From an uncultured Gemmatimonadaceae bacterium (lineage in GTDB: Bacteria; Gemmatimonadota; Gemmatimonadetes; Gemmatimonadales; GWC2-71-9), in assembly GCA_964557115.1 (NCBI GenBank), contig CAZKYO010000004.1, positions 53,892 through 117,891 of the forward strand: DNA of 64,000 nt, given 5' to 3'. Within the stretch, counting starts at the first letter, position 1, and each line of letters opens with the position of its first letter. The notes under the pieces are model-generated. The model was not told the origin of the DNA. It searched no databases and was given only the letters and a program-made list of their open reading frames with translations. Below, piece after piece: positions 10,113 through 55,628 of the stretch. A program made the position numbers and the translations under genes.

Positions 10113-10534
10113 CAGCCCATCCGCCGGACTCCGCACTCCCAGCCCACCCCGATTGAGCACGTGGGTGTAGATCATCGTCGTCGTCACATCCCGATGCCCC
10201 AACAGCTCCTGCATGGTGCGAATGTCCCCTCGTCCGCGCTTCGCGCGAACTCGGGGCAGGCTTCTCCCGATTCCAGCAGGTGCGTCGCGAACGAATGCCT
10301 CAGGGTGTGACAGCTCGCCCGCTTGCCAATCCCGCTCTCCCGCACCGCCGCCGTCATCGTCCGCTGCATCGCGCTCTCGTGCAGGTGATGCCGGCGCACC
10401 TCGCCGCTCATGCCGTCGCGATACCGCCGCGTTGCCGGGAACACCCACTGCCAGGGCCAGCTCCGCGCTGCGTTCGGAAACTTCCGGTCCAGCGCCCCCG
10501 GCAACGCCACCCACCCCGCCCCGTCGGCCAGGTC
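10113..10534 (-). pseudogene. intI: integron integrase (IntI) remnant, N-terminally truncated and frameshifted
   Basis: Two frames (track ORFs 10184..10606 and 9954..10514) together read [24 protein letters not shown]...[12 protein letters not shown]...[18 protein letters not shown] // [38 protein letters not shown]. This includes the IntI-specific ALERKYP...W.WVFP patch plus the box II Tyr. About 150 N-terminal residues are missing, and a 38-nt block interrupts the frame. Confidence 0.8.
10227..10264. repeat. 38-nt block interrupting the intI remnant, with a perfect 10-bp palindrome TTCGCGCGAA (10240-10249)
   Basis: On the coding strand GAAGCCTGCCCCGAGTTCGCGCGAAGCGCGGACGAGGG lies between HLLESG and DIRT, where IntI proteins have a single Tyr codon. 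The net +35 nt shifts the frame. Confidence 0.6.
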
Positions 10535-10545
10535 GCGCGAGCGCC

Positions 10546-10761
10546 CTACGCCGTCCCCGACGACCCCTTCCGCGTCGACCACCCGAACAGCGAGTAGCCG
10601 GGGCACCGCGCGGCCAGGGAGGAGAGCAGGAACACCACCGCGATCACCCCCAGCACGATCGCCAGCGTGCCGCTGATCCGGCCGGTGAAGTAGAGCACCG
10701 CGATCGCGACCGCGATCAGGGTGCGGATGAGGCGATCCGCCGTGCTCATGTTGATCGGCAT
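10546..10761 (-). CDS. DUF2892 (YgaP-like) small membrane protein
   Basis: 71-aa [64 protein letters not shown]. Typical DUF2892 layout with C-terminal CP.Y motif. Confidence 0.7.
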
Positions 10762-10936
10762 GCGACGCTCCCGGCGAGGCGTGAGGGGGACGCCGTGGGC
10801 CGGGGCGGGCGCCCCGGCGCGTGGCGCACCCTGAAGGTGCCGCCCGAAACGAGGCCCGACAAGCGACCCCGCCCTGCCCCGACCACCCCCTATTGGACCA
10901 GTGATTTTCGGGTTATCTTCGGTTTCCTGCTGCCCC

Positions 10937-10976
10937 CTCGAATCGCGAGTCTCGAATCCCGGTTCTCGATGAAATC
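10937..10976. repeat. solo heptad/14-mer tract (CTCGAATCnCGnnT x3) overlapping the imuB start codon
   Basis: ctcgaatcgcgagt ctcgaatcccggtt ctcgatgaaatc read directly. ATTCGCG-type heptad family. No inverted partner within 170 nt upstream. Confidence 0.7.
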
Positions 10977-12450
10977 CGTCCTCTTCGTCGACCCCCCCGC
11001 CTTCTGCACCACCGTGGCCGCGATGGACGACCCGTCGCTGCGCCACCGGCCGGTCGCGATCGCCCCCCTGGGGGCCGACCGCGCGGTGCTGCTGGCGCTC
11101 TCGGCCGAGGCGCGGCGCGAGGGGCTCGCGCGGGGGACGCCGGTGGCGCTGGCGCGGCGGATCTGCCCCGACCTGATCGTGCGTCCCCCGGAGCCGCGGC
11201 GCTGGGCCCGCGCCCACCGGGCGCTGCACGAGATCCTGTCGCGGGTGGCGCCGGTGATCGAGCCGAAGACGTGGGGGCACTCCTACCTCGACATCACCGG
11301 CACCGAGCGCCTCTTCGGTTCACCCGTCGACGTCGCCCGCCGCCTCGAGCGCGAGGCGCGTGAACGCCTCGGGCTGCCGCTCGCGGTGGGGATCGCGATC
11401 AACAAGCTGGTGAGCGAGACGGCCGCGACGGTCGTCAAGCGCGAGACGGGCGCGCTGATCTGGCCGGTGGCGGCGGGACACGAGGCGGTGTTCCTGGCGC
11501 CCGAATCGGTGGCGCTCCTGCCCGACGTGTCCGACCCGATCCGCGAACGGCTCGACGACTACCACCTCGAGCGGATCGGCGAGGTCGCCGCGCTCGGCGA
11601 ACAGCCGCTCCGGATCGCGTTCGGACGCGCGGGCCGCACCCTGCACCAGCACGCGCACGGCATCGATCGCCGCCCGGTGCTGCCGCCGGCGGTCCGGGCC
11701 GAGTGCCGCGTCGCGCACGTGCTGGCGACCGACACCAACGACCGCGCCGTGCTGCAGCGGCTGCTCCGCGCCATGAGCGAGCGGATCGGCCGCCGGCTCC
11801 GCGAGCGCGGCTACGTGGCGGGACGCCTCCACCTCGCGGTGCGCCACGCCGACGACACGACCGCCGAGCGGCGGGTGCGGCTCGCCGCCTGCACCCTCGA
11901 CGTCGAGCTCTGGCGCGCCGCGTGCGCCGCGCTCGACCAGGCGCTGACGCGGCGCATCGCGGTGCGCAGCGTGACCCTCACCGCCCTGGAGCTCCACGAC
12001 GGCGACGGACAGTTCGAGTTGTGGGAGGACCCCGCGGCCCTCTCGGCGCCGGAGGCCACCGCGCTGCAGCGGGCGGTGGATGGGGTGCGGCGGGTGTTGG
12101 GAGAAAGGCAGGTCCCTCGACTCGCGCCTGCGGCGCTCGCTCGGGATGACAGTGGTGAGGAATCGCCCTTCGCCCCTCACCCTTCGCCGGTCGCCTACCA
12201 GTCCCACGCCTCCAGCCGCTCGGTGCCGTCGTCGTCGACCGACAGCGTCACCAGCAGGTCGCCGTCGAGCACGGCGCGTTCGCTGCGACGCGGCAGCCGC
12301 AGCGTCCGCACCCAGCGGCCGGCGGCGGCGAACAACCGCCAGTCACAGCCGGTGGCGCCGGCCCCGCAGTACCCCGCGACGGCGAGACGGCCGTCGCGCC
12401 CCACGGCCAGCGCGCCGACGAGCGGCACTGTCGCGGCGAACGTGGCATGA
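10969..12450 (+). CDS. imuB: ImuB-like catalytically inactive Y-family DNA polymerase
   Basis: Start at MKSVLFVDPPAFC. Y-family fold motifs are present, but the catalytic DxD is replaced (VDPPAF) and the SIDE Glu is absent (SYLDITG), as in ImuB. dnaE2 lies nearby. The 3' end is uncertain: no stop until 12450, and the last ~85 codons are antisense to the convergent gene. Confidence 0.75.
   Translation: MKSVLFVDPPAFCTTVAAMDDPSLRHRPVAIAPLGADRAVLLALSAEARREGLARGTPVALARRICPDLIVRPPEPRRWARAHRALHEILSRVAPVIEPKTWGHSYLDITGTERLFGSPVDVARRLEREARERLGLPLAVGIAINKLVSETAATVVKRETGALIWPVAAGHEAVFLAPESVALLPDVSDPIRERLDDYHLERIGEVAALGEQPLRIAFGRAGRTLHQHAHGIDRRPVLPPAVRAECRVAHVLATDTNDRAVLQRLLRAMSERIGRRLRERGYVAGRLHLAVRHADDTTAERRVRLAACTLDVELWRAACAALDQALTRRIAVRSVTLTALELHDGDGQFELWEDPAALSAPEATALQRAVDGVRRVLGERQVPRLAPAALARDDSGEESPFAPHPSPVAYQSHASSRSVPSSSTDSVTSRSPSSTARSLRRGSRSVRTQRPAAANNRQSQPVAPAPQYPATARRPSRPTASAPTSGTVAANVA
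12154..12190. repeat. small heptad palindromic element (CTTCGCC/CCTCACC type) in the imuB 3' region
   Basis: ggtgagg aatcg cccttcg cccctca cccttcg cc. Stem ggtgagg/cctcacc. Translated in the imuB frame as GEESPFAPHPSP. Confidence 0.55.
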
Positions 12451-13325
12451 TCGAGCCACTCCTCCACCATGCGGCGCTCCATCTCGGTGCCGGCCTCGCC
12501 GAGGCGCACCGCGCGGTAACGGGCGCGGGCGTCGTCGTCCACCGGCGCGCCCGACTCGTTCCATCGCACGATCCGGCGCACGGCACCGTTCGACCCGCCG
12601 AGACGCACCTCCGCCGCCAGGCCGGTGGCGCGTGCCAGCCAGGGGCCGGCCGTGGCGACCGATGCGACCGCGCCGAAGGCCTGGTCGTGGAGGTTGGGAC
12701 CCAGGTCGGCCAGCACGAAGTCGACCATGCTCGAGTGCATCCAGCCGCTGCTGCCGAGCGGCAGGCCGGTGGCCGAGACGCGGGAGAGCACCAGCGAGTC
12801 GCGATTGAGGCCGGGCTGCATCTGCTTGAAGAAGCGCGCCGCCAGGAGCAGCGACCCGTCGTCGAAGGCGCCGCGCAGTTCCGTGTTGGGCCCGTCGAGG
12901 TCGAGCTGCAGGGTGCGCAGCAGCGCCCCGTCGGGACCGATCACCGTGAGCCGACCGATCCCGAACTCGTAGGCGAAGGCGGTGTCGCCGATCGCCGCGA
13001 CCGAGAGGGCCCGCTGGAACTCGCCCGGGCCGGCGCCCTTCCGCCCGAAGCGCCAGCGCAGCGTCCCGTCGGCCCCGAACGCCAGCACCTCGGCGCTGCC
13101 GCTGTTCGCCACCAGCAGCGTGCCGTCGTCGCGCACCGCAAGGTCGGTCACGTCGAGCAGCGGCGAGCCCTCGCCACCGACGGTCCATCGCGGCGCGGGC
13201 GTGATCACGCTGTCCGGGGCGGCGCTCGTGACGATCGCGATCCCGGCGCTGTCGGTCGCCGCCCCGGGAGGGGGCGCGCCGCGCCCGCCGCAGGCCGCGA
13301 GGAGGAGCGCCAGCGCGAACGCCAT
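12195..13325 (-). CDS. lipoprotein with NHL/6-bladed beta-propeller-like repeats
   Basis: Start chosen at MAFALALLLAACGG (lipobox, 13325). Repeats such as VRDDGTLLVANSGSAEVLAFGADGTLRWRFGRKGAGPGEF. The upstream track extension only translates the palindromic element at 13419-13480. Confidence 0.7.
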   Translation of the reverse strand: MAFALALLLAACGGRGAPPPGAATDSAGIAIVTSAAPDSVITPAPRWTVGGEGSPLLDVTDLAVRDDGTLLVANSGSAEVLAFGADGTLRWRFGRKGAGPGEFQRALSVAAIGDTAFAYEFGIGRLTVIGPDGALLRTLQLDLDGPNTELRGAFDDGSLLLAARFFKQMQPGLNRDSLVLSRVSATGLPLGSSGWMHSSMVDFVLADLGPNLHDQAFGAVASVATAGPWLARATGLAAEVRLGGSNGAVRRIVRWNESGAPVDDDARARYRAVRLGEAGTEMERRMVEEWLDHATFAATVPLVGALAVGRDGRLAVAGYCGAGATGCDWRLFAAAGRWVRTLRLPRRSERAVLDGDLLVTLSVDDDGTERLEAWDW

Positions 13326-13418
13326 CCCCGCCTCGCCGCGACCGGGGACCGGATCGGGGCGCTCCTGGATCTCGAGGGACGGCAGGATCACGGCTCGCAT
13401 GCCGAGAACTATATCCGC

Positions 13419-13480
13419 GAGATTCGCGATTGGAGACTCGAGATCCGGAAAGGCCCCTCGAATCTCCGATCGCGAATCAC
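13419..13480. repeat. heptad-arm palindromic element, ATTCGCG family
   Basis: Left gagattcgcgattggagactcgag vs reverse complement of right gtgattcgcgatcggagattcgag (21/24 match), 14-nt spacer. Lies in the divergent spacer between the propeller lipoprotein gene and tag. Confidence 0.8.
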
Positions 13481-13501
13481 GATCCTCCGCCTGAGGCACC
13501 C

Positions 13502-14029
13502 ATGAGCTCCTACTGTGACATCGCCCCGGGCCATCCGGTCCACGGGCCGTACCACGACACCGAGTACGGCTTCCCGCTCCGCGACGACGCGGGGCTGTTC
13601 GAGCGGCTGGTGCTCGAGATCAACCAGGCCGGCCTGTCGTGGCTGACGATCCTGAAGAAGCGCGAGGCGTTCCGCGCGGCCTACCGCGGCTTCGATCCGC
13701 ACGTGGTGGCGCGCTTCGGCGCGCGCGACCGCGCCCGGCTGCTGGCCGACGCCGGGATCATCCGCAACCGCCTCAAGGTCGACGCGGCGATCCACAACGC
13801 GAGGCGGCTCGTGGTGCTGATCGACGAGCACGGTTCGTTCGCCGACTGGCTCGACCGGCAGGGCACGCTGTCGAAGGCCGAATGGGTGAAGGCGATGAAG
13901 CGCGAGTTCCGCTTCATGGGCGGCGAGATCGTCGGCGAGTTCCTGATGAGCATCGGCCGGCTGCCGGGGGCGCACGCACCAGGGTGTCCGGTCGCGAAGC
14001 AGCTGGCGCGCCGCGCGCGGCGCGCCTGA
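13502..14029 (+). CDS. tag: DNA-3-methyladenine glycosylase I
   Basis: Start at MSSYCDIAPG. YHDTEYGFP, LEINQAGLSWLTILKKREAFR and FMGGEIVGEFLMSIG are Tag hallmarks. Confidence 0.9.
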   Translation: MSSYCDIAPGHPVHGPYHDTEYGFPLRDDAGLFERLVLEINQAGLSWLTILKKREAFRAAYRGFDPHVVARFGARDRARLLADAGIIRNRLKVDAAIHNARRLVVLIDEHGSFADWLDRQGTLSKAEWVKAMKREFRFMGGEIVGEFLMSIGRLPGAHAPGCPVAKQLARRARRA

Positions 14030-14101
14030 TCCGGCCGTGCGCAGGACGACGATCGGCGGCGCCGCAAGCGACGCCGCAGCGACGCGGGTCCGTCCGCTCC
14101 G

Positions 14102-17100
14102 ATGAGCTTCACTCACCTCCACGTCGCCTCCTGGTTCTCCTTCGGCCGCGGCGCCTCGTCCCCCGAGGCGCTGGTGCAGGCCGCGGCGCGGCGCGGCTTC
14201 CGCGTGCTGGCGCTCACCGACACCAACGGCGCGTACGGCGCGGTCGAGTTCCAGAAGGCCTGCGACGCCGCGGGGATCCGCCCGATCCTCGGCGCGCGGC
14301 TGGTGACCCGCGCCCATCGCGCGGTGGTGCTCGCCGAGGACGCCCGGGGATGGGCCGCGCTCTGCCGCGCCGTCACCGCGATCCACTGGGACGCCGACCT
14401 CGCCCTCTCGGCGCAGCTGGCGGTCGATCGCCAGGGGCTGACGGTGCTCTCCGACGACGCCGACCTGCTCGAGCGCCTGGTGAAGCTCTCCGGCCCCGCC
14501 GGGATCTGCGCCGAGCTGATCCCCGGCCCCGATCGCCACCGGGTGCTCGCCGCGGCGCGGCGCCTGGGCCTCCCCGCGGTCGTCACCGGCGGCGTGGTGA
14601 TGGCCAACGCCGAGGACTGGCCGAGGCAGCGGATGATCGAGGCCATACATCGGAATGGCGTGCTGGACGAGGGCGGCGAGGGGCGACAGGCGACGGGCGA
14701 CGGGCGCACCGACGCTCCTGTCGCCTGTCGCGTGTCGCCTGTCGCGCCCCGCGACGCGTGGCTGCGCCCGGCACCGGAGCTCGAGCGGCATTTCCCCGAC
14801 GTCCCCGACGCCTTCGCCGCCGCCGGCGTGATCGCCGAGCGATGCCAGTTCCGGCTGCCGCTGGGCCAGACGATCGCGCCGCGGGTGGCCGACGCCGGCC
14901 ACGCGCTCGAGCGGTTGCGCACCCTCGCCTACGCCGGCGCGATGCGGCGCTACGGCACCATCGCGCCGGTGACCCGCGACCGGCTCGAGCACGAGCTCGC
15001 GATCATCGGGATGAAGGGGTTCGCCGACTACTTCCTGATCGTGCGCGACATCGTCGACCACGGCCCCACCCACTGCGGCCGCGGTTCGGTCGCGAACTCG
15101 ATCGTCTCCTACTGCCTGGGCATCACCCACGTCGAGCCGCTCGGCGCGGGGCTGCTGTTCGAGCGCTTCCTCAACCCCGCGCGCCGGGATCCGCCCGACA
15201 TCGACCTCGACTTCCCGTGGGACGAGCGCGACCGGATCCTGGCGTGGGTCTTCCGCCAGTGGCCCAGGCCGCGGGCGGCGATGGTGAGCAACCACAACTG
15301 CCTGCGGCTCGCCGGGGCGCTGCGCGAGGTGGCCAAGGTGCACGGCCGGCCCGCGAACGAGATCCGCGAGGTGACGCGCCGGGTGCCCCACTACGACCCC
15401 GGCGACGACCCGCGGGCGCTGTTCCGCGACCACCCCAACTTCCGCGACCTCCGGCTGCCGCGCGCCTGGCAGGACTACGCGGTGCAGGCGGCCGCGCTGG
15501 TCGGCACGCCGCGCCACCTCTCGCTGCACCCCGGCGGCGTGGTGATCGTCCCCGGCGCGCTCACCGACACGGTGCCGATCGAGCCGGCCGCCAAGCGACT
15601 CGACGGCGCCCCCGACCTCACCGTGCCGGTGATCCAGTTCGAGAAGGACGGCGCCGAGGACGCCGGCCTGGTCAAGATCGACCTGCTCGGCAACCGCTCC
15701 CTGGCGGTGATCCGCGACGCGATCGCGATGGTGCGGACCGGCACCGGCGTGCAGCTCGACTACACCTCGCACGCGGCGGGCGACGACCCCGCCACCCGGG
15801 CGCTCTTCCGCACCGGCGACACGCTGGGCGTCTTCTACACCGAGTCGCCGGCGTCGAGGATCCTCAACCTCAAGTCGCGGGCCGAGAGCTATGACCTGCT
15901 GGTGCTCAACACGTCGATCATCCGGCCGGCCAGCAACAAGTGGATCACCATCTACCTCGAACGGCTGCACGGCACGCCGTACGAACCGCTCGATCCGTCG
16001 CTGCGCGACGTGCTGGCCGAGACGTTCGGGGTGATGGTCTACCAGGAGGACGTCGTCAACGTCGCCCACGTCTTCGCCGGCCTCGACTGGGCCTCCGCCG
16101 ACGGGCTCCGCAAGGCGCTCTCCAAGAAGCGCCCCGAGAAGCACCTCGCGGCGTACGCCGACGAGTTCGTCCGCGGCGCCGCGGCGCTCGGCCGCGACCC
16201 CGCCACGACCGGGAAGGTGTGGGAGAACATCCTCGCCTTCGCCGGCTACTCGTTCTGCAAGGGGCACTCGTGCTCCTACATCCAGGTCGCGCAGCAGAGC
16301 TGCTACCTGCGCGCCAACCACCCGGCCGAGTTCATCGCCGCGGTGCTCGCCAACGGCGGCGGCTTCTACCGACCGTTCGCCTACGTGGCCGAGGCGATGC
16401 GGATGGGCGTGACCGTGCTGCCGCCCGACGTGAACGCGAGCGCGTGGCGGTGCACCGGGCGGGACCGCGAGCTGCGGGTCGGCCTCCAGTTCATCAAGGG
16501 ACTCTCCACCGCCGGCGCCGACGCCCTCGTGGCGGCCCGCGAGGCGGACGGGCCGTTCGCGTCGCTCGACGACCTGCGCCGCCGCACCGCGCTGTCGCGC
16601 GACGACCTGCGATTGCTCGTCAAGGTCGGCGCCTGCGACGCGATCGCCGCCGGACGGCACCGGCCGGAGCTGCTGTGGGCGGTGGATGTCATCCCGCCCT
16701 CGCTCGCCACCCGAGCGAGCGGCGGGATCTCCGAGGTCGCCACGCCCCGACCCGCTGCGTCACGGGTCGGAGCGTTCACGGCCTCGGAGGCCCCGCCGCT
16801 CGGGCTGAAGCCCGAGGGCGGGGCGATCCCCCGCCTCCGCGACTACCCGCCCGAGCGCAAGCGCCAGGACGCGTGGGCGCTGCTCGGCTTCTGCACCGAC
16901 GCCCATCCGATGACGCTGCACGCGGCCTCGCTCCGCCGCTTCCGCCTGGCGCGCAGCACCGAGCTGCACCGCCACGTCGGCAAGCGGGTGCTGATGGCGG
17001 GGATGTACACCACCGGCAAGCCGGTCCACACCGCGAAGCACGAGCCGATGCAGTTCGCCACTTTCGACGACGGGCACGGCCTGGTCGAGTGCGTCCTCTT

Positions 17101-17257
17101 CCCCGACGTGTACGCCGAGCGGAGCCACGTCCTCTTCGACCAGGGACCGTTCCTGTTCCGGGGGATCGTGGAGGAGTCGTTCGGGGCGATCACCGTGACC
17201 GTGACACACCTGGAGCGGCTGGAGCGTATGTTGGGCCGGATGAACCGAGATTCGTGA
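14102..17257 (+). CDS. dnaE2: error-prone DNA polymerase III alpha-like subunit DnaE2 (ImuC)
   Basis: 1051-aa ORF with PHP domain start MSFTHLHVASWFSFGRGASSPEALV, PDIDLDF, LVKIDLLGNRSL, SYCKGHSCSY-type motifs. Length and lack of a C-terminal tau-binding region fit DnaE2. Confidence 0.95.
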   Translation: MSFTHLHVASWFSFGRGASSPEALVQAAARRGFRVLALTDTNGAYGAVEFQKACDAAGIRPILGARLVTRAHRAVVLAEDARGWAALCRAVTAIHWDADLALSAQLAVDRQGLTVLSDDADLLERLVKLSGPAGICAELIPGPDRHRVLAAARRLGLPAVVTGGVVMANAEDWPRQRMIEAIHRNGVLDEGGEGRQATGDGRTDAPVACRVSPVAPRDAWLRPAPELERHFPDVPDAFAAAGVIAERCQFRLPLGQTIAPRVADAGHALERLRTLAYAGAMRRYGTIAPVTRDRLEHELAIIGMKGFADYFLIVRDIVDHGPTHCGRGSVANSIVSYCLGITHVEPLGAGLLFERFLNPARRDPPDIDLDFPWDERDRILAWVFRQWPRPRAAMVSNHNCLRLAGALREVAKVHGRPANEIREVTRRVPHYDPGDDPRALFRDHPNFRDLRLPRAWQDYAVQAAALVGTPRHLSLHPGGVVIVPGALTDTVPIEPAAKRLDGAPDLTVPVIQFEKDGAEDAGLVKIDLLGNRSLAVIRDAIAMVRTGTGVQLDYTSHAAGDDPATRALFRTGDTLGVFYTESPASRILNLKSRAESYDLLVLNTSIIRPASNKWITIYLERLHGTPYEPLDPSLRDVLAETFGVMVYQEDVVNVAHVFAGLDWASADGLRKALSKKRPEKHLAAYADEFVRGAAALGRDPATTGKVWENILAFAGYSFCKGHSCSYIQVAQQSCYLRANHPAEFIAAVLANGGGFYRPFAYVAEAMRMGVTVLPPDVNASAWRCTGRDRELRVGLQFIKGLSTAGADALVAAREADGPFASLDDLRRRTALSRDDLRLLVKVGACDAIAAGRHRPELLWAVDVIPPSLATRASGGISEVATPRPAASRVGAFTASEAPPLGLKPEGGAIPRLRDYPPERKRQDAWALLGFCTDAHPMTLHAASLRRFRLARSTELHRHVGKRVLMAGMYTTGKPVHTAKHEPMQFATFDDGHGLVECVLFPDVYAERSHVLFDQGPFLFRGIVEESFGAITVTVTHLERLERMLGRMNRDS
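14683..14746. repeat. heptad-arm palindromic element (GCGACAG/CTGTCGC family) inside the dnaE2 reading frame
   Basis: gcgacag gcgacgg gcgacgg g - cgcaccgacgct - cc tgtcgcc tgtcgcg tgtcgcc tgtcgcg. Translated as GRQATGDGRTDAPVACRVSPVA, and the ORF stays open. Confidence 0.85.
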
Positions 17258-17344
17258 CTCGAGACTCGCGATTCGCGGAAACCACGACGAGAGCGAGGCC
17301 CGGGATGACACCCTCCAATCGCGAATCACGAATCGCGACTCTCC
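17249..17344. repeat. heptad-arm palindromic element, ATTCGCG family, spanning the dnaE2 stop and the next gene start
   Basis: Left gattcgt gactcga gactcgc gattcgc (17249-17276); right ccaatc gcgaatc acgaatc gcgactc (17315-17341). The dnaE2 TGA (17255-17257) lies in the left arm, and the ATG at 17305 lies in the spacer. Confidence 0.8.
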
Positions 17345-19107
17345 TCCTGCTCGCCGCGATCGCCGCCCCGCTTGGCGCCCAGGACCGCGCCTGGTGGGAC
17401 ACGCTGCCCCGGCCCGACCGGCCGGCGATCGCGTGGACGCGCCAGTCGCTGTACCTGCCGATGCGCGACGGCGTGCGCCTCGCGGCCGACGTCTTCCTCC
17501 CCGCCGGCGCCGACCGGGCGCACCGGGCCGCCACCATCCTGCACCTCACCCGCTACCGTCGCGGGCTCCAGTTCAAGGATCCCGCGCGCGAGGCGGCGGC
17601 CGGGCCGACGGCCGGGCTGATGCCGTTCCTGCAGGCCGGATACGCCGTGGTGATCGTCGACGTGCGCGGGACGGGCGCTTCCTTCGGCTGGCGCACCACC
17701 GAGTTCTCGCCCGCCGAAGTGCTGGATGGCTGGGACGTCCTCGACTGGATCGTCGCGCAACCCTGGTCGGACGGCGCGGTCGGCGCCACCGGGATCTCGT
17801 ATCCCGGCACGACGAGCGAACTCGTCGGCACCCTCGGACACCCGGCGCTCAGGGCGGTCGCCCCCCTCTTCTCGATCTATGACTTCTATCCCGACGTGAT
17901 CCGGCCGGGCGGGATCTTCCTCGCGCCGTTCTTCCGGGCCTGGGCCGACCTCGTGCGGCAGATGGACGCCAACCGCCTCAACGGACCGACCGACCCGGTC
18001 ACCGGCGTGCGGCCCGTCGATGGTCCCGACGGCGCGGCCCTGCTCGCGGAGGCGATCGCGGAGCATGCGCGCAACGCGTCGATCTACCCGCAGGCGGCGG
18101 CGCTGGCGTTCCGCGACGACGTGGCCGCTGACGGCATCTCGCTCGACCAGGTCTCGCCCCACGCCCGCTACGACACCCTCTCGCGCCGGATCCCGATCTA
18201 CTCGATGGGCGGATGGGCCGACGGCTTCGCGGGATCGCAGATCCAGCGCTACCTCGCGCAGCCCTCCGCGGGCTCGCGGCTCACCATGGGGCCGTGGAAC
18301 CATGGCGGCGGCTGGATCTACCAGCCCGGCCGCCCACCGGCGCGTTCGGTGTTCGACCAGCAGGGCGAATTGCTGCGGTTCTTCGACAAGTACGTGCGCG
18401 GGATCGACAGCGGCATCGAACGCGAGGCGCCGGTCCACTACTTCACCACCGGCGCCAATCGGTGGGTGGCGGCCGACCGGTGGCCGGTCGCGCACCGCGA
18501 CACCACGCTGTCGCTCGGGAATGGACGCCTCGCGGCGCGACGGCTTCCCGATGCGCCGCCCGTCACCCTGCGTCCCGACTCCACCCTGGGCACCGGCAAC
18601 CAGTCGCGCTGGAACACGATCCTCGGTGGCGGCCCGGTCGCCTACCCGCCGGGACGATCCGGGACGGCGACCGGGTGGACCGGATTCGAATCGCCGCCGC
18701 TCGAGGCCGACCTCACCATCACCGGCCACTCGATGGTGCGACTCGGCGTGACCGGCGCGGCCACGGGAAGCCAGCTCTTCGTGTACCTCCAGGACGTGGA
18801 CTCCACCGGCGCCGGCTGGCAGGTGACCGAGGGCGAGATCGACCTGCGCTTCCGCCGGACCCAGCCTGCTCCGCCGCGATATCCCCGCCCAGAGGCCTAC
18901 CATGACTTCCGGCGCGGCACTGCCGGCGACGCGAAAGGACCGGTGGCGATCGAGCTGCTGCCGTTCTCGCACACCTTCCGGCGCGGGCATCGTCTCCGGC
19001 TCGTCCTCGCCGCGAGCGACCGCGACCACTTTCCGCCACCGGGGGCCGGGATCACGATCACGATCGATCCCGCCGGCTCGACGCTCGTCCTGCCGATCGA
19101 GCAGTGA
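17305..19107 (+). CDS. CocE/NonD family hydrolase (X-Pro dipeptidyl-peptidase S15-like)
   Basis: Start at MTPSNRESRIATLLLLAAIAAPLGAQ. YLPMRDGVRLAADVFLP, YAVVIVDVRGTGASFG, GISYPGT and a C-terminal beta-sandwich are typical of CocE/NonD. Confidence 0.85.
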   Translation: MTPSNRESRIATLLLLAAIAAPLGAQDRAWWDTLPRPDRPAIAWTRQSLYLPMRDGVRLAADVFLPAGADRAHRAATILHLTRYRRGLQFKDPAREAAAGPTAGLMPFLQAGYAVVIVDVRGTGASFGWRTTEFSPAEVLDGWDVLDWIVAQPWSDGAVGATGISYPGTTSELVGTLGHPALRAVAPLFSIYDFYPDVIRPGGIFLAPFFRAWADLVRQMDANRLNGPTDPVTGVRPVDGPDGAALLAEAIAEHARNASIYPQAAALAFRDDVAADGISLDQVSPHARYDTLSRRIPIYSMGGWADGFAGSQIQRYLAQPSAGSRLTMGPWNHGGGWIYQPGRPPARSVFDQQGELLRFFDKYVRGIDSGIEREAPVHYFTTGANRWVAADRWPVAHRDTTLSLGNGRLAARRLPDAPPVTLRPDSTLGTGNQSRWNTILGGGPVAYPPGRSGTATGWTGFESPPLEADLTITGHSMVRLGVTGAATGSQLFVYLQDVDSTGAGWQVTEGEIDLRFRRTQPAPPRYPRPEAYHDFRRGTAGDAKGPVAIELLPFSHTFRRGHRLRLVLAASDRDHFPPPGAGITITIDPAGSTLVLPIEQ

Positions 19108-19172
19108 CCCGGCCTCGCCCGTTCGGGTCCCTCGTGGGTACGATCCTTGGAACGCTCGACCGTGAGGCACCG

Positions 19173-19598
19173 ATGCGCACCCGAATGCTCACCCCGGCCC
19201 TGCTGCTCGCCGCCCTCGCCTGCGACGCCGGCGAACCGACCCGCGCGATCCATCCGGATCGCTTCCCCGTCCCCGGCAGCCACGAGATGGCGATCGGCGA
19301 CTCCGCCCAGCTCGAGGGCACGCCGTACACCCTCGAGATGCTCTCGCTCGAGACGGACTCCCGCTGCCCGGCCGAGGCTGACTGCATCTGGGCCGGCGAG
19401 GTGAAGGTCCGCGCCGCCCTGCACGCCGATCCCGGCCTCGGCATCCCCGATATGGAACTCACCCTCGGCACCACCTCGGCGACGGTGGCGGGGGGCGTCT
19501 CGCTCCAGATCACAAGTGTCGCGCCGGTGGCCCACGCCGGCGTCGCCATCCCGGCGAGCGCGTACCGGCTCACGATCACCGCGGACCAGCCGCAGTGA
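19173..19598 (+). CDS. hypothetical lipoprotein
   Basis: Start at MRTRMLTPALLLAALACDAG (lipobox), small beta-rich protein. Stop overlaps the next start (GTGA). Confidence 0.55.
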   Translation: MRTRMLTPALLLAALACDAGEPTRAIHPDRFPVPGSHEMAIGDSAQLEGTPYTLEMLSLETDSRCPAEADCIWAGEVKVRAALHADPGLGIPDMELTLGTTSATVAGGVSLQITSVAPVAHAGVAIPASAYRLTITADQPQ

Positions 19599-19975
19599 CC
19601 GCCGACCCGCGCCGCCCGAGCGCCGTGCACCAGGTCGCCCTCACGGTCGAGGACCTCGAACGCGCCGTCGCCTTCTACCGCGACGTCGTGGGACTCACCT
19701 ACCTGTTCAGCGCACCACCCGGCATGGCGTTCTTCGACTGCGGCGGGACGCGCATCCTCCTCGGCACCCGGGCCGCCGGCGGCGACGATCCGCCGCGGTC
19801 GATGGTGTACTACCGGACCGACGACATCCAGGATGCCGCCGGCCGACTGGCCGCCAACGGTGTCGACGTCGGCAAGGGGCCCGCGATGATCGCGAACGTC
19901 GGCGGGCGCGAGATCTGGCTGCTGGAGTTCCGCGATTCGGAAGGGAATCCCGTCGCCCTGATGATGGAGCGGTAG
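19595..19975 (+). CDS. VOC/glyoxalase family protein
   Basis: 126-aa ORF. VHQVALTVEDLERAVAFYRDVVGL ... EIWLLEFRDSEGNPVALM is the typical VOC pattern. Confidence 0.8.
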   Translation: MTADPRRPSAVHQVALTVEDLERAVAFYRDVVGLTYLFSAPPGMAFFDCGGTRILLGTRAAGGDDPPRSMVYYRTDDIQDAAGRLAANGVDVGKGPAMIANVGGREIWLLEFRDSEGNPVALMMER

Positions 19976-19979
19976 CGCA

Positions 19980-20083
19980 GCGATACGAGACGCGCGACAC
20001 GCGACCGGCCCCGGAGAAACACTCAATGTTCTCCGGGGCCGGTCGCGTGTCACCTGTCGCCTGTCGCGCGTCGCCTGTCGCGG
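19980..20083. repeat. heptad-arm palindromic element (GCGACAG family) with a perfect 23-bp inner stem; likely bidirectional terminator
   Basis: gacacgcgaccggccccggagaa (19996-20018) pairs perfectly with ttctccggggccggtcgcgtgtc (20029-20051), 10-nt loop. The outer right arm is a run of six tandem GTCGCNN heptads (20041-20082): gtcgcgt, gtcacct, gtcgcct, gtcgcgc, gtcgcct, gtcgcgg. Fills a convergent intergenic gap. Confidence 0.85.
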
Positions 20084-21349
20084 CTACTGATCTTCCAGGT
20101 CCGCCAGTGCCTCGACGGCGGCGCGGCGCACCTCGGGATCCCTGTCGGTCAGGGCGCGAGTGATGGCGGGCTTGGCCGCCAGCGCGCCGATGCTCCCGAG
20201 CGTCTCGATCGCGCCCTTGCGGATCTCGACATCCGGATCCGCCACCAGGCCGATCAGCACGCCGGCGCTGGCGGGGTCCTCGATGTTGTCGAGCGCGTTG
20301 ACGACCGCCCGGCGGAGCCGGATGTCGGAAGACGATGCGGCGCGGAGGAGTTCCGGCGGCGCGGCCGCGAGGTTGTCGAGGTCGCCCAGCGCCTCCGCCG
20401 CGGCGACCTGCAGCTCGAGGTCGTCGCCGCCGAGGACCGCCGCGAGCACCGGGGCCGAGCGGGCCGCCTCGATGTTGCCGAGCGCCTCGATCGCGGCCAG
20501 CCGCACGCGGCGATCGTCGTCGCGCTGCACGGTCCGTTCGAGCGCCGGCGCGGCGTCGACGCTCTCGATGTCGCCGAGCGCCTCGGCGGTCGCCCACCGG
20601 ACCGTCGGTTCAGGGTCGCCGAGCAGCGGGAGCAACCCGGCTACCGCCTTGGGATCCTCGATCGTCCCGAGGGCCCAGGCCGCGGTGGTGCGCACGCGGA
20701 CGGAGCGGTGGTCGAGCAGTCGCGTGAGCGGTGCCACCGACGCGCGATCCTCGAGCTCGCCGAGCGCCCAGGCAGCCATGGCCACGACCGCCTCGTCCCC
20801 GGCCGCGAGCAGGCGCTCCACGCGGGGGCGCAGCGCCGGCCGGTCGTGTTCACCGATCGCCAGGAGGGCTGCCTCGCGGATCCGCACCGAGGCGTCGTCC
20901 AGCAAGGCACCCAGCGCCTCGTCGCCGATGGCCGATCCGCCAAGCATCTTCGCGGCGGTGCGGCGGATGCACGGATCGTCGCTCCCGAGCCGACGGGTCA
21001 GTTGCCGGATCGCCGCGGCGTCGCGCACCCGCCCGGAGATCGAATCCTTGGCCGCACGCGCCGCCACACGGGCGTCCGACAGGCGCCCGATGCCGAGTTC
21101 GTCGCCGCCCCACCAGAAGTTGCCGATCTGGTCGCTCAGCATCTCGCAGGCGACCGGATCGGTGCGTCCCATCGCATCCAGCATCATCGCGACCCGGGCC
21201 GAGTCGGGGCCGGGACGGTCGCCGTCCCAGTCGCCGATGTGCAGCGACGACTGCGGCGCGGCGTCCGGCGCCAGGGTGAGCATCGTGGTCGCGGCCGCGG
21301 CCGACCCGGCACCGAGGACGCCCACCAGCAGCAGCACGGTCTTCATCAC
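20084..21349 (-). CDS. secreted HEAT-repeat (PBS-lyase HEAT-like) protein
   Basis: 421-aa ORF with signal peptide and at least 8 repeats of the type D..VR..AA.ALG.I....A...L..LL.D. Confidence 0.85.
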   Translation of the reverse strand: MMKTVLLLVGVLGAGSAAAATTMLTLAPDAAPQSSLHIGDWDGDRPGPDSARVAMMLDAMGRTDPVACEMLSDQIGNFWWGGDELGIGRLSDARVAARAAKDSISGRVRDAAAIRQLTRRLGSDDPCIRRTAAKMLGGSAIGDEALGALLDDASVRIREAALLAIGEHDRPALRPRVERLLAAGDEAVVAMAAWALGELEDRASVAPLTRLLDHRSVRVRTTAAWALGTIEDPKAVAGLLPLLGDPEPTVRWATAEALGDIESVDAAPALERTVQRDDDRRVRLAAIEALGNIEAARSAPVLAAVLGGDDLELQVAAAEALGDLDNLAAAPPELLRAASSSDIRLRRAVVNALDNIEDPASAGVLIGLVADPDVEIRKGAIETLGSIGALAAKPAITRALTDRDPEVRRAAVEALADLEDQ

Positions 21350-39543: not shown

Positions 39544-39551
39544 AAGACGGA

Positions 39552-39655
39552 GATTGGTGATTCGCGAAGGGTGAAGGGGAAGGCGGCTCCATGCGGAATC
39601 GCCTTCCCCTTCACCCTTCACCCTTCACCGTTTCCGGGTCACCCTTCACCACTCC
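39552..39655. repeat. heptad-arm palindromic element (GGTGAAG/CTTCACC family); likely bidirectional terminator
   Basis: Perfect 20-bp stem gaagggtgaaggggaaggcg (39566-39585) / cgccttccccttcacccttc (39600-39619), 14-nt loop. The right side continues cttcacc cttcacc ... cacccttcacc. Fills a convergent gap and abuts the stop at 39656. Confidence 0.85.
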
Positions 39656-42058
39656 TCACGGCACCGCCTCCGCGCGGGGCCTGACGAAGAAGATCCCCGC
39701 GAAGCCGCCGGTGACCGGGATCACCCCGCTCTTGAAGAACGGGTAGTTGCTCCAGGTCCCGCCGCCGGTCCCCTCGCGGTCGGTGTCGAAGAACCCCACT
39801 TCTCGCGGATTGACCGGATCGCTCACGTCGATGACGCGGAGTCCCGCCCCGGTGTTCGACTGGTACATGTAGCGGCCGCGGACGTAGAGGTTGTGGTCGG
39901 TCTCGGTGGTGGTCTGCTTGTACTCCTTGACCAGCAGCGGGTCGTCGAGGTCGGTGAGGTCCCACACCAGCGTGCGAGTGTGGGGTTCGCTGCCGTTGGC
40001 CTCGTCGATCTCGTCGTTGCTGAAGAAGAAGCGCTGGTCGTCCGACAGCCAGCCCTGGTGCGCGTAGGCGACGTTCGGGTAGCTGACGGTCGAGATCGAC
40101 CGGGGCGCCTTCTTGTCGCTCACGTCGGTGAGCGAGATCGCCGTCTCGTTCGCCGAGATGCAGATCTCGTGGCCGGCGTAGTCGCGGTCGGGGCCGCGAT
40201 AGACCAGGCACTGGGCGTCGTGGATGTAGCCGGTGCCGCGGCGCCCGGTGATCCCGTCGGCGAAGCAGCCGGCGAAGGTCGGGCGGGCCGGCTGGTGCAG
40301 GTCCATCATGTGCAGCCCGCCATCGCAGGTGGTGCCGCCCGCGCTGGCGCCCACCACGTAGCCGAAGCCGGTCTCCTCGTCGATCACCACGTTGTGGGCC
40401 GACCAGATGTCGGGATAGAGGTAGTCCGGCGCGAACGTCTGCGGCGCCTTGAGGTTCCGGAGCCGGTGGAGATCGAACACCTGCACGCCGTGCTGGCCGG
40501 CGCCATCGGAGACGATGTAGGCGTGGTCGCGGTAGACCTTGATGTCGCGCCACACCGCCGCGTGCGCGCCGGGCGTCATCGGCAGGTCGCCAAGGTAGCG
40601 CGGATGGGCGGCGTCGCTCATGTCGACGAACGAGGTGCCGTCGCTGCGCCCGATCAGCGCGTACTCGCGCCCCGTGGCGGAGTCGGTCCAGCCCCAGAGG
40701 TCGTTGAGCCGCATGCCGCGCACCCCGCCGATGGCGCTCACCGGCAGGAACGACACCAGGTCGACGTTGTTGCAGTCCCAGAGCCTCGCCTCGCCCTGCT
40801 GGCAGCGGATCTCGTCGCCCATCAGCGACGGCAGCGCCTCGGGCGGCGAGACGACCGAGGTGTCCTCGGTCCAGCCAGCCGTGCCGCGCCGGACGATCAG
40901 CGCGCGGCCGGCGCCGATGGCGTACCCGCTCACGCCGACCACCGCGAGGTCGCCCTGCACCGCCACCGCATCGCCGTAGTTCCGGTCCACGAACTGCTCC
41001 GGCGCCACGAACGTCGCCAGGCCGGCGAGGCGGCCGTCGCCGGCGAGCGCGTAGCGATGCACCGCGCCCGCTCCGGCCGCACTCGGCGTGCCGACCCAGA
41101 GGCCGTCGCCATCGGCGGCGAGCGCGGCACCGAAGTGGCCGTTCCGCACCGCGTCGAACGGCTGCAGCTCGCCACGCGCGCGCCAGGTCATCCGCGCCGT
41201 GTCCAGGGTGAACTGGGTCACGCCGCCCAGGTTGCTGCCGGCGCCCGGGGCACCGACGAAGGCGCGCGAGCCCGTGATCGCCACCGCGCTGCCGAACGCC
41301 GCGGTCGTGTCGGCGGCGCCGTCGCGGGCGAGCGCACGCGTCGGCTCCCACCTGCCGCCGACCCGGTGGTAGGCGAACGCGCGCCCCGCGCCACGGTCGC
41401 TTCCCGGCGCGCCGATCAGCATCCAGTCGCCGTCCATCGCCAGCGCGCTGCCGTAGCCGCGCACGCCGGCGGTGTCCTCGGGCGCCATCGTGGCGACGAG
41501 CTCCCAGCGGCCGTTCCGCGAGGCGTAGGCGAACACTCCGCCGACGCCACCGGTGCGACCGGGGGCGCCGACCAGCGCCATGTCGCCGTGGATCAGCAGC
41601 GTCGTGCCGAAACCGTCCTTGGGCTCGCCGTCGAGCGCCAGCAGCAGCTGCTCGGCGGCCCACTTCCCGTTGCGGCGCACGAAGGCGTGCACCACGCCGG
41701 CCGCGCGCCCAAACTCGGGATCGGCGCCGACCAGGAGCCGGTCGCCGTCGGCGGCGACCGACCGGCCGAAGCGGTCGCCGGTCGCGGAATCGGGCGCGGT
41801 GACCCGCGCCACCTCCCGCCAACCGCCCGTCGCCCGTCGCCGGTCGCCTGCCGCGTAGACGTACACGACGCCCGAACGGAACCGATTGCTGGGCTCCCCG
41901 ACGTAGACCTGGCCGTTGGCGACCGCGACCGCGGCGCCGAAACCGGCGCGGAGGGATTCGGTGGCCGATGGACTGGATCGCTGGGCGGCGACGCCGTTCG
42001 CGAACAGCACCGCGGCGGCGACGAGGGCGACGGGACGAATCGTGGAGCGCATCGGCAT
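39656..42058 (-). CDS. secreted FG-GAP-like repeat plus LVIVD-repeat (choice-of-anchor B-like) beta-propeller protein
   Basis: Start at MPMRSTIRPVALVAAAVLFANGVAAQ. Seven repeats of type FG.A.A..GD...VGAPG, then a C-terminal half with LNDLWGWTD, DIKVYRDHAYIV and GLRVIDVSDPVNP (LVIVD motif). Confidence 0.8.
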   Translation of the reverse strand: MPMRSTIRPVALVAAAVLFANGVAAQRSSPSATESLRAGFGAAVAVANGQVYVGEPSNRFRSGVVYVYAAGDRRRATGGWREVARVTAPDSATGDRFGRSVAADGDRLLVGADPEFGRAAGVVHAFVRRNGKWAAEQLLLALDGEPKDGFGTTLLIHGDMALVGAPGRTGGVGGVFAYASRNGRWELVATMAPEDTAGVRGYGSALAMDGDWMLIGAPGSDRGAGRAFAYHRVGGRWEPTRALARDGAADTTAAFGSAVAITGSRAFVGAPGAGSNLGGVTQFTLDTARMTWRARGELQPFDAVRNGHFGAALAADGDGLWVGTPSAAGAGAVHRYALAGDGRLAGLATFVAPEQFVDRNYGDAVAVQGDLAVVGVSGYAIGAGRALIVRRGTAGWTEDTSVVSPPEALPSLMGDEIRCQQGEARLWDCNNVDLVSFLPVSAIGGVRGMRLNDLWGWTDSATGREYALIGRSDGTSFVDMSDAAHPRYLGDLPMTPGAHAAVWRDIKVYRDHAYIVSDGAGQHGVQVFDLHRLRNLKAPQTFAPDYLYPDIWSAHNVVIDEETGFGYVVGASAGGTTCDGGLHMMDLHQPARPTFAGCFADGITGRRGTGYIHDAQCLVYRGPDRDYAGHEICISANETAISLTDVSDKKAPRSISTVSYPNVAYAHQGWLSDDQRFFFSNDEIDEANGSEPHTRTLVWDLTDLDDPLLVKEYKQTTTETDHNLYVRGRYMYQSNTGAGLRVIDVSDPVNPREVGFFDTDREGTGGGTWSNYPFFKSGVIPVTGGFAGIFFVRPRAEAVP

Positions 42059-42201
42059 CCCCGAGGAGGTGGTGGATCGCTGTCGGCGTGAAGGGGAAAG
42101 GATACGTCCATCGCCGACCGCGCACCAACGGCACGGGGCCGGCCCCATCGCTGGAACCGACCCCGGTCGCTTGTCACCCGCCCCCGCGGGCGCAGCGCCT
42201 C

Positions 42202-42882
42202 CTAGTTGTTCGGCCGCCGTGAGCGCCCCTGCTGCCCGGGCGCCCTGGCCGCGCCGCGGCCGTTGCCGTTGCCGCGGCTCACCGTAGCGGGGCGATTGTC
42301 GCGGCGGTCGTCCCGCCGATCGACGCGATTGTCCTGTCGAGTGTCGCGCCGGTCGATGCGGTTGTCCTGCCGCACGTCGCGCCGGTCAATGCGGTTGTCC
42401 TGCCGCACGTCACGCCGGTCGGTCCGGTTGTCCTGCCGCACGTCGCGGCGATCGTTCCGCCAGTCGTCGCGCCAGCCACCGCGATCGTCGCGGTAGACCC
42501 GCCACTCGTTCCGCTCGTAGCGGCTGCGGTAGCGATCCCAGTCGCGATCCCTCGGCGCGAAGAAGAAGCGGTCGCGATAACGGTAGACCACGACCGGCCG
42601 GGCGTTGCGGAACGGCCGCTCGTAGTAGTGGCCGCCGAACAGGTACAGCGTCACCGGCCGCCAGTAGGCGGCGGTATAGCGCCAGTCGCCGTAGCCGCCG
42701 GGGTAACCGACCACCACGACCTCGGGCCCGTAGTCGTAACGATCATCCGGCACCACCACGACGCGGTCGCGGCCCCCGATCCCGAACGGACCGATGTGGA
42801 TGTCGGCGGAAATCTGCGCGGCGGCCGGGGCGGCGCCGAGGGCAACCAGGATGGGTACGGCAACGAACGTCTTGGCACGCAT
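42202..42882 (-). CDS. secreted protein with Arg/Asp-rich 11-aa tandem repeats
   Basis: Start at MRAKTFVAVPILVALGAAPAAAQ. Y/R/W-rich core, then DRRDVRQDNRx repeated 5 times. Confidence 0.65.
   Translation of the reverse strand: MRAKTFVAVPILVALGAAPAAAQISADIHIGPFGIGGRDRVVVVPDDRYDYGPEVVVVGYPGGYGDWRYTAAYWRPVTLYLFGGHYYERPFRNARPVVVYRYRDRFFFAPRDRDWDRYRSRYERNEWRVYRDDRGGWRDDWRNDRRDVRQDNRTDRRDVRQDNRIDRRDVRQDNRIDRRDTRQDNRVDRRDDRRDNRPATVSRGNGNGRGAARAPGQQGRSRRPNN
42292..42456. repeat. 33-bp tandem repeat, 5 units, within a CDS
   Basis: Units gcgattgtcgcggcggtcgtcccgccgatcgac / gcgattgtcctgtcgagtgtcgcgccggtcgat / gcggttgtcctgccgcacgtcgcgccggtcaat / gcggttgtcctgccgcacgtcacgccggtcggt / ccggttgtcctgccgcacgtcgcggcgatcgtt. 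Confidence 0.85.
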
Positions 42883-43096
42883 GGAAAGCCTCCTGTCTAG
42901 TCGGGTCCTGCTGCTCACCCCGGCAAGGAGCGAGCATCATGCCATGCCGCAAGTCATTGCCACAAAACGACTTGCCAAGAGCGGCCCCGGGGCCCGGCGT
43001 CCTCCAGGATGGACACTTGTCCACCGCGGCCCGGCGCCGGTGATAACTTGTGGCCCCGTCGCGAGACGCGATCAACGACAGCAGGGAGCGGGCTTC

Positions 43097-43620: not shown

Positions 43621-43974
43621 ATGAAGACAAACGAACCGGTCCACCAGGGCGAGGCGCTCACCCGCCACCTCGCCGACCTCCCTGGCTGGGAGGTCGAGGA
43701 CGGCTGGCTCAAGCGCACCTACCGCACCGATGGCTGGCGGACGACGATGCTGGTGACCAACGCGATCGCGTTCCTCGCCGAGGCGGCGAATCATCACCCC
43801 GACCTCGAGGTACACTGGCCCAGCGTGGTCGTGCGGCTGCAGACCCACTCGGCCGGCGGGATCACCGACAAGGACCTCCAGCTCGCCGGCGAGATCGAGC
43901 GACTGGTGCGCTGGCAGCCGACCGGCGGCTTCCCGGGCCTCGAGGGACAGCCCGACGGCTGGGTGAAGCCCTGA
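43621..43974 (+). CDS. phhB: pterin-4a-carbinolamine dehydratase
   Basis: 117-aa ORF. GW......L.R.Y ... AEAANHHPDLEVHWPSVVVRLQTHSAGGITDKDLQLA is the PCD/DCoH signature. Confidence 0.9.
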   Translation: MKTNEPVHQGEALTRHLADLPGWEVEDGWLKRTYRTDGWRTTMLVTNAIAFLAEAANHHPDLEVHWPSVVVRLQTHSAGGITDKDLQLAGEIERLVRWQPTGGFPGLEGQPDGWVKP

Positions 43975-43993
43975 CCGACCGGGCAATCGGCGC

Positions 43994-53015: not shown

Positions 53016-55556
<2,541 letters not shown>

Positions 55557-55628
55557 CGGTCAGGCTCCTTTCGGCCCCAGGCCGAGCCGGCGCGACCGAA
55601 GCATCGCGCCATCAGGGAGACCCCAAGG

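Follow-up and report, generated by a model that had tools for sequence, protein, structure and literature searches.

A translated heptad-repeat hairpin in a dnaE2-like gene, probably a member of a genome-wide family of inverted repeat pairs in Gemmatimonadales

We analyzed a 64-kb stretch of DNA (64,000 nucleotides, hereafter the window) from an uncultured Gemmatimonadaceae bacterium (contig CAZKYO010000004.1), in which a short palindromic element lies inside a gene for a dnaE2-like (ImuC-like) DNA polymerase of the C family. The host gene, recognized by its open reading frame (ORF), translation and profile matches, spans 14102–17257 on the plus strand and encodes 1051 amino acids. The element of about 70 bases consists of tandem heptanucleotides followed by complementary heptanucleotides in inverted orientation. 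It lies within the continuous ORF and is read in frame as DnaE2 residues 194–215 with the peptide GRQATGDGRTDAPVACRVSPVA, exactly as an initial annotation of this DNA had translated it. Taking the evidence together, we consider it likely that this element belongs to a genome-wide family of paired, inverted short tandem repeats, that it arose on the level of DNA, and that a permissive loop of dnaE2 tolerates it.

The hairpin and its site in dnaE2

Direct reading of positions 14500–14950 showed four G-rich heptads at 14676–14703 (GCGAGGG at 14676, GCGACAG at 14683, GCGACGG at 14690 and 14697), a 14-nt centre (GCGCACCGACGCTC) and complementary heptads at 14718–14745 (CTGTCGC at 14718, 14725 and 14739, GTGTCGC at 14732). 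The initial annotation had counted three heptads facing four around a 12-nt spacer. These repeats and the spacer are real, but a further, degenerate heptad in the left arm makes the arrangement four plus four, and the spacer measures 10 to 14 nt by choice of the arm ends and not exactly 12. Tandem Repeats Finder (TRF) detected a period of 7 in both arms, with 4.6 copies at 14675–14706 and 4.1 copies at 14717–14745. On this basis the element can be divided, all on the plus strand, into a G-rich 5' arm of about 4.6 heptads of the GGCGACG type in the register GNGANNN (14675–14706; TRF, reading and predicted stem), a non-repetitive spacer or loop at the hairpin centre (14707–14716, GCACCGACGC; reading and predicted folds) and a C-rich 3' arm of about 4.1 heptads of the CCTGTCG type, which complements the 5' arm (14717–14746; TRF and inverted repeats). 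Including the flanking complementary bases, the whole predicted hairpin covers 14668–14753 and thus residues ~190–217 (inverted repeats and folds). The inverted-repeat search yielded 40-nt arms (14668–14707 and 14714–14753) with a complementarity of 78%, and 31-nt arms with 84%. A 92-nt segment containing the element is predicted to fold into a single long hairpin, with -41.2 kcal/mol (z -4.8) as DNA and -73.8 kcal/mol (z -6.3) as RNA, a stability matched by none of 200 dinucleotide shuffles.

The element is positioned in a loop in the C-terminal half of the PHP-domain region, ahead of a conserved Y/W-[ML]-R motif, and Pol III alpha of Escherichia coli aligns on either side of this site. For comparison we collected 80 dnaE2 loci from Gemmatimonadales (L001–L080), 78 of which are comparable at the insert site, and extracted the DNA between residues 186 and 216 with tblastn anchors. 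At 37 of these 78 loci the site consists of just 27–33 nt (encoding TLSALPxxEVW or TLAQVEHAW), and one more locus has 36 nt. The other 40 loci, together with the window, have in-frame inserts of 45–144 nt. The segment amounts to 29 residues in the window versus 9–11 in insert-free orthologs, which agrees with the earlier estimate of about 20 additional residues. The alignment thus shows an unconserved segment, either short or filled with sequence-unrelated inserts in about equal parts, and not a conserved equivalent segment free of the inverted repeat.

Most inserts are built from tandem 7- or 8-nt units followed by inverted complementary units, and the unit sequences vary by lineage. Examples of such pairs are GGCGACG/CCTGTCG in the window, GCGAGGN/NCCTCGC in L066, CAATTGC/GCAATCA in L042 (3664–3765), GACGGCTG/CCAGCCGT in L045, GGCGATTG/CCCAATCG in L052, GTCGGTAG/CTTACCGN in L055 and AGATTGA/AATCTTA in L061 (3619–3726). 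The AT-rich units of L061 and L042 are embedded in very GC-rich genes, indicating that unit composition is not set by genome composition. A fold z-score below -3 was obtained for about 20 of the 41 inserts (the window included), whereas control segments of equal length from the same genes had a mean z of about 0.

Comparison with close relatives showed both empty and occupied sites. Orthologs at ~73% protein identity (L010–L013) have no insert, while the three nearest relatives (L001, L002 and L066; 85–88% protein identity) have a homologous element of equal length. The units are GCGACNG/CNGTCGC in the window, L001 and L002. In L066, the C at position five of the heptad is replaced by G in the 5' arm, with the matching replacement of G by C in the 3' arm, and 4 of 32 stem pairs are altered on both sides. 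The two arms of the homologous element have therefore changed together. The window element takes the place of about 15 nt of the insert-free sequence and does not cleanly interrupt it. Inspection of this one copy showed no target-site duplication or flanking direct repeat, and a search of the insert-free dnaE2 site for a seed hairpin found nothing consistent.

The inserts are translated, but they do not resemble coding sequence. All 41 have a length divisible by three and contain no in-frame stop codon, whereas only 26–31 of the 41 are free of stop codons in the other five reading frames. This constraint on the frame indicates that ribosomes translate the segments. By contrast, third codon positions have a GC content of 0.72 in the inserts and of 0.91 in the neighbouring 1.5 kb of these genes (p = 1.7e-11, Wilcoxon test), a codon usage which indicates that the inserts were not shaped as coding sequence; the host ORF as a whole has codon-position GC values of 0.73/0.51/0.96. 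The peptides are unrelated among the window copies described below as well as among orthologs. In an AlphaFold2 model, residues 192–212 lack secondary structure and score below 50 in the predicted local distance difference test (pLDDT), and the flanking PHP-domain segments reach 68–94. This prediction, which follows the structural check proposed in the initial annotation, supports the placement of the insert in a disordered, permissive loop.

Two side observations concern the ortholog set. L005 and L006 stem from one metagenome-assembled genome (isolate Ww334) with two dnaE2 loci, one having 36 nt at the site and the other 57 nt with a one-armed G-rich array; this difference could be due to paralogs or to a strain mixture. 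In addition, palindromic elements that are not built from heptads are also translated (L004, L014 site B; P0053, P0055 and P0056 near residue 816). The recurring peptides SLRGPQGRSN and HPERSEG...LRFAQDD derive from such palindromes in dnaE2 loops, which look like a separate dispersed family of palindromic elements.

The host ORF contains the Pfam domains PHP (residues 5–98), DNA_pol3_alpha (palm, 271–530), finger (534–695) and HHH_6 (769–853) and a weak OB match, an order that corresponds to the architecture of the alpha subunit of C-family polymerases. The top NCBIfam match is NF004225, 'error-prone DNA polymerase', with 559.9 bits, below the curated cutoff of 939, and the ORF passes TIGR00594 (501 bits versus a cutoff of 434). 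Its orthologs, all from Gemmatimonadales, are named error-prone DNA polymerase by the Joint Genome Institute, and an imuB-like Y-family gene is located 1.7 kb upstream. Based on these sequence matches, the name DnaE2-like is reasonable, although the curated error-prone model falls short of proving it. The exact host protein is known from one contig only.

An opposite-strand lipoprotein gene and a tag glycosylase gene lie between the imuB-like gene and dnaE2. An ORF at 12447–13505 (plus strand) was considered as an operon partner and rejected, since codon-position GC places the real gene on the minus strand. The first ~250 and last ~100 codons of the imuB-like ORF (10213–12450, plus strand) do not show the GC pattern of coding sequence, and the ORF overlaps the lipoprotein gene (12195–13499, minus strand). 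The real imuB-like gene probably starts near 10960. Its end may be an out-of-frame stop codon at 12149, in which case a frameshift or a sequencing error would have to be assumed.

Related elements in the window and across dnaE2 loci

The dnaE2 element has many relatives in the window. We found 12 arrays of period 7, compared with 0.2 expected from Markov-2 simulations, and nearly none at other periods. Tandem GCGACNG (3 mismatches allowed) had 24 matches versus 4.3 expected, a number that none of 100 shuffles reached. The more general pattern (GNGANNN)3GNGA, with at most one mismatch, had 51 matches versus 1.2 expected, distributed over 14 loci in the 64 kb. The common architecture is (GNGANNN)~4 ... 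(NNNTCNC)~4, at a density of about one element per 4.6 kb. Ten of the 14 loci are intergenic or at gene ends, three are complete in-frame copies (dnaE2, lon and a trpE-like gene) and one is an intragenic single arm. Only three of the seven unit positions are common to the 14 loci, which have several unit types. Where the arm types agree, as at 14675, 19980 and 57828 or at 54404 and 60084, the cores are unrelated.

Of the two other in-frame copies, the one in lon (53016–55559, minus strand) is of the GTGAATG type and occupies 54404–54515. It is situated just ahead of the Walker A motif and amounts to 49 residues, compared with 2 in the Lon structure 7p6u of the PDB (+47). The copy in the trpE-like gene (43967–45382, plus strand) is of the GAGATTC/GCGAATC type (44443–44559, -63.9 kcal/mol) and falls between the N-terminal and the chorismate-binding domains.

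The intergenic copies at 19980–20081 and 57828–57925 were correctly recognized in the initial annotation as having the same heptad type as dnaE2. Both match the GCGACNG unit and lie between convergent stop codons, the former enclosing a GC-rich core hairpin and the latter a terminator-like one. Two further copies between convergent stop codons are found at 39550–39644 (GGTGAAG type, -67.2 kcal/mol) and at 52935–53007, adjoining lon (GCGAATC/GAGACCG type, -56.8 kcal/mol). All four span the gap from stop to stop and enclose GC-rich core hairpins that have no U-tracts; these copies may act as bidirectional transcript-end structures. A terminator and promoter consensus scan of window positions 12000–21000 detected no match, including no terminator-like site with a U-tract, which indicates that the elements are not canonical U-tract terminators. 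A scan of the entire window against Rfam at the gathering threshold gave no match either.

Several members are close to dnaE2 itself. A copy of the GAGATTC type with its complement occupies the divergent intergenic gap upstream of tag (13418–13480, no strand assigned, -42.3 kcal/mol). Another one (17246–17338) connects dnaE2 with the following co-directional gene: its 5' arm codes for the last dnaE2 residues and the stop codon, and its 3' arm covers the start and N-terminus of the next gene, an S15 peptidase, coding for PSNRESRIAT ahead of a signal-peptide-like stretch. At this site L001 has a related element and L002 a different, non-heptad palindrome. The remaining loci comprise a TGAATGG-type copy between two minus-strand genes (60084–60185), two loci upstream of genes (the loci themselves starting at 29884 and 10936), a locus starting at 12163, within the long imuB-like ORF and directly next to the stop codon of the lipoprotein gene on the minus strand, and the single arm within a gene for an FG-GAP repeat protein (41823–41849). 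As a separate observation, a 33-nt tandem repeat (42309–42454, 4.4 copies, TRF score 180) is present where the minus-strand ORFs 39656–42385 and 42202–42936 overlap.

An array census over 81 loci, comprising 659 kb of dnaE2 loci, revealed a number of regularities. Period 7 (161 arrays) and period 8 (160) predominate, followed by periods 6 (17) and 9 (16). The G-rich arm is at the 5' end in 53 of 56 inverted pairs, and the medians are 4.1 units for the arm and 20 nt for the gap. Altogether, 178 of 321 arrays round to four units, a mode to be read with the caveat that the scoring under-detects three-unit arrays with mismatches. Unpaired arrays (217) outnumber paired ones (108). The period is a property of the lineage: the clade of the window (17 loci) has 58 arrays of period 7 and none of period 8, while outside this clade period 8 or a mixture prevails, with many lineages showing period 8 nearly exclusively and L059–L061 having mostly period 7. 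Units are also shared within genomes, identical units occurring in 14% of same-genome array pairs (more than 400 nt apart) and in 1% of pairs between genomes.

Within dnaE2, the arrays are confined to four variable sites, at residues ~100, 186–216, ~816 and 863–908, and the conserved region from residue ~240 to ~800 is free of arrays save one near residue 790. Among single arms, G-rich ones prevail at ~816 (12:2) and C-rich ones at 863–908 (17:5), and in L055 complementary arrays flank a conserved HhH segment of 45 residues. For sites C1 and C2 of dnaE2, 6 of 14 loci match within one mismatch, which is only modestly above the same-genome background of 28% and is given here as a sequence observation, not as a structure. 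A long-range bracket pairing of sites A and B was dropped, as 0 of 11 were complementary.

The site upstream of the tag start codon illustrates how elements persist. A heptad palindrome is found there in the window, L001 (2282–2378), L002 (2274–2375) and L066 (~2300–2396), with three unit types among these four loci (GAGATTC; GTCGATG/ACCATCG; GGGGACG/CCCCGTC). The site is thus kept while the unit is replaced. Mismatches in the stems of genic hairpins are G:T in 30 and A:C in 22 cases, without a bias towards G:U-compatible mismatches on the sense strand, and we see no sign of selection on the sense RNA.

Origin of the element

According to the explanation that we favour as probable, an inverted pair of short tandem repeats would be generated and remodelled by processes acting on DNA. 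Replication slippage would homogenize the units of each arm, quasi-palindrome correction by intra-strand template switching over the hairpin would keep the arms complementary, and some form of ectopic copying would spread unit types among the loci of one genome. Within genes, purifying selection would tolerate an element only at lengths divisible by three and without a stop codon. As an outcome, a site would retain its element while the unit sequence drifts or gets replaced. In dnaE2, the element would owe its survival to the permissive loop at this site and to the restriction to versions that are in frame and free of stop codons. The data do not require a function specific to dnaE2, and the polymerase presumably derives none from it.

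Some findings weigh against this explanation. The four-unit mode, the 53:3 polarity, the lineage-fixed period and the genome-specific units are not obviously explained by plain slippage, and such regularities could point to a dedicated mechanism or function. Recurrence of the site across lineages and the compensatory change in close relatives would also be expected under selection for a structure. Furthermore, all comparison sequences are metagenome-assembled genomes, and the low confidence of the loop is supportive and not decisive, because the AlphaFold2 model is mediocre overall (mean pLDDT 66, predicted template modelling score 0.42).

A possible, though doubtful, alternative is therefore that the arrays are written by a dedicated copying process that is still unknown, or that they are maintained as a new class of cis-element or as a selected bidirectional structure. 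Such a process would write roughly four copies of a 7- or 8-nt motif that is specific to the genome, always with the same polarity (the G-rich arm being 5' on either strand), so as to flank a pre-existing terminator-like hairpin, a short core or, in some orthologs, the conserved 45-residue coding segment. Its signatures would be the fixed period of a lineage, the preference for four units, the strong polarity and a sharing of units that is 14-fold higher within than between genomes. If this were true, proteins of Gemmatimonadales would be shaped by a writing process at scale.

The initial annotation had argued for insertion of a DNA element over protein-level evolution, and the three checks suggested there (ortholog alignment, empty sites and structure prediction) all turned out in favour of this view. 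A DNA-level origin is well supported, because the codon usage is not gene-like and the same architecture occurs in intergenic DNA and in two other genes; the signs of a transposed unit were not seen. This distinction bears on the idea of a MITE or a REP/REPIN-like mobile element that was inserted by a transposase (RAYT or another hairpin-recognizing enzyme) and is in frame by chance. A dispersed multi-copy family with inverted arms and genome-specific unit types would fit this idea, ortholog loops also host the other translated palindromes (SLRGPQGRSN and HPERSEG...LRFAQDD), and the palindromic elements of Rickettsia are a precedent for in-frame copies (PMC10969869). However, there is no full-length consensus, the cores are unrelated in copies with the same arms, and about 15 nt were replaced and not interrupted at the window copy, where no target-site duplication was seen; 'insertion' is to be understood with this caveat. 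Moreover, single arms are twice as frequent as paired ones in the census, and some orthologs have complementary arrays on the two sides of a coding segment that is conserved. Mobility of this kind is thus unlikely.

We give similarly little credence to a hairpin selected as a cis-regulatory structure of dnaE2, which would tune expression of the error-prone polymerase through mRNA (stability, an RNase site or a translational pause between PHP and palm) or through DNA. The very stable fold, its retention in the three nearest relatives with two-sided changes of stem pairs, the recurrence of hairpins at the same site across many lineages and the elements flanking the window dnaE2 at 13418 and 17246 are all compatible with such a role. 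On the other hand, about half of the orthologs are insert-free and about half of the inserts are one-armed or have no significant fold, the same kind of element is present in three other dnaE2 loops and in the unrelated lon and trpE-like genes, and mismatches compatible with G:U pairing are not in excess in sense orientation. At the density observed in the window, elements in the vicinity of dnaE2 are expected anyway.

The remaining explanations have less in their favour. Protein-level selection to create or lengthen a disordered linker, as proposed for Borg tandem repeats, would account for inserts that are in frame, stop-free, hydrophilic and placed in low-confidence loops, and for the different lengths of four protein loops across the order. 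It is nevertheless very unlikely: the 7- and 8-nt units are read in all three frames, so that the peptide itself is not repetitive, a palindrome is meaningless at the protein level, the codon usage of the inserts is poor, peptides are unrelated between lineages, and the identical architecture exists in non-coding DNA. Repeat units whose length is not a multiple of three, in tandem and in a mutagenesis gene, are reminiscent of a contingency locus in which gain or loss of a heptad shifts the frame and switches the error-prone polymerase on or off. This would be most improbable given that every one of the inserts is in frame and none is interrupted, that imperfect units at about four per arm are poor substrates for slippage, and that the same elements occur in the housekeeping genes lon and trpE-like. 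Finally, a chance low-complexity stretch or an assembly artefact might be suspected in GC-rich DNA (71%) that is compared with metagenome assemblies, but the shuffling and simulation controls and the presence of these elements, always in frame, in 80 independent assemblies including megabase contigs leave almost no room for it.

Significance and comparison with known systems

If the favoured explanation holds, hairpin-forming tandem-repeat elements repeatedly colonize fixed loops of conserved proteins in Gemmatimonadales, among them an error-prone polymerase, the Lon protease and an anthranilate-synthase-like enzyme, as in-frame disordered additions with a fast sequence turnover. Proteins shaped by selfish or neutral DNA would thereby gain a second example, mechanistically distinct from the palindromic elements of Rickettsia. 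Such inserts inflate the apparent divergence of proteins and create annotated regions of low complexity; they also mark insertion-tolerant loops, which could be used in protein engineering. The interest lies in the scale and regularity across the order. In the literature we found analogues in Xanthomonas and Nostoc, Beggiatoaceae and Rickettsia but no report of such elements in Gemmatimonadota, although subscription journals were mostly outside our coverage and a prior description is possible.

REP and REPIN elements are short, abundant and hairpin-forming, mostly extragenic sequences that occur as inverted pairs, persist vertically and are linked to RAYT transposases. REPs have a conserved sequence of ~20–40 nt per family and no internal 7-nt periodicity. 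The elements described here are similar in being short, hairpin-forming and present in multiple copies as inverted pairs, but instead of a conserved, near-identical consensus the window family has a consensus at only three of seven positions. Unlike MITEs, its copies share no core, and no flanking direct repeat was seen by inspection at the window copy.

The palindromic elements of Rickettsia are translated in frame within unrelated housekeeping genes and are reported to be compatible with fold and function; they measure ~150 bp and have a conserved family consensus and a conserved encoded peptide (PMC10969869). The in-frame translated palindrome is thus a common feature. In contrast, the Gemmatimonadales elements measure 60–120 bp and consist of 7- or 8-nt tandem units with non-conserved cores, and they encode no conserved peptide.

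An excess of long heptanucleotide simple-sequence repeats in some bacteria, cited from Mrazek et al. (2007) in PMC4692102 and PMC4679880, has long been noted without an explanation, and our findings bear on it. The cyanobacterial STRR and the TAACTGA repeats of Beggiatoaceae are abundant tandem heptanucleotides near gene boundaries, with a few copies inside ORFs; for TAACTGA, one inverted case among 170 sets and an unknown origin were reported (PMC4679880). Tandem heptanucleotides near gene boundaries are likewise found in Gemmatimonadales, but whereas STRR and TAACTGA are almost always direct repeats of one fixed heptamer, the elements described here are paired hairpin arms and occur as in-frame inserts in conserved proteins.

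The closest resemblance in architecture is to the heptameric simple-sequence repeats that Rehm et al. (2015; PMC4692102) described as inverted pairs in Xanthomonas (GGGAATC type) and Nostoc (GGGGA(C/T)T). Xanthomonas has 70–75 convergent two-array cases per genome, G-rich on the plus and then on the minus strand, with a preference for ~4 units of the consensus GGGANTN and a location near stop codons; in close relatives, array length and sequence vary while site and type are preserved (PMC4692102). The Gemmatimonadales elements correspond in their 7-nt tandem units, the number of about four per array, the convergent polarity, the proximity to stop codons and the conservation of the site while the sequence varies. 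They differ in the consensus, which is GNGANNN in the window, so that only G1, G3 and A4 are common, and in having many units per genome, an 8-nt period in sister lineages and copies translated inside conserved genes at recurrent loops, here in Gemmatimonadota. Moreover, most of their units have no G-tracts (GCGACAG, GAGATTC, GCGAATC), and a G-quadruplex rationale therefore does not apply to them. That the four-unit preference and the convergent polarity recur without G-tracts argues against a quadruplex explanation and for a more general cause.

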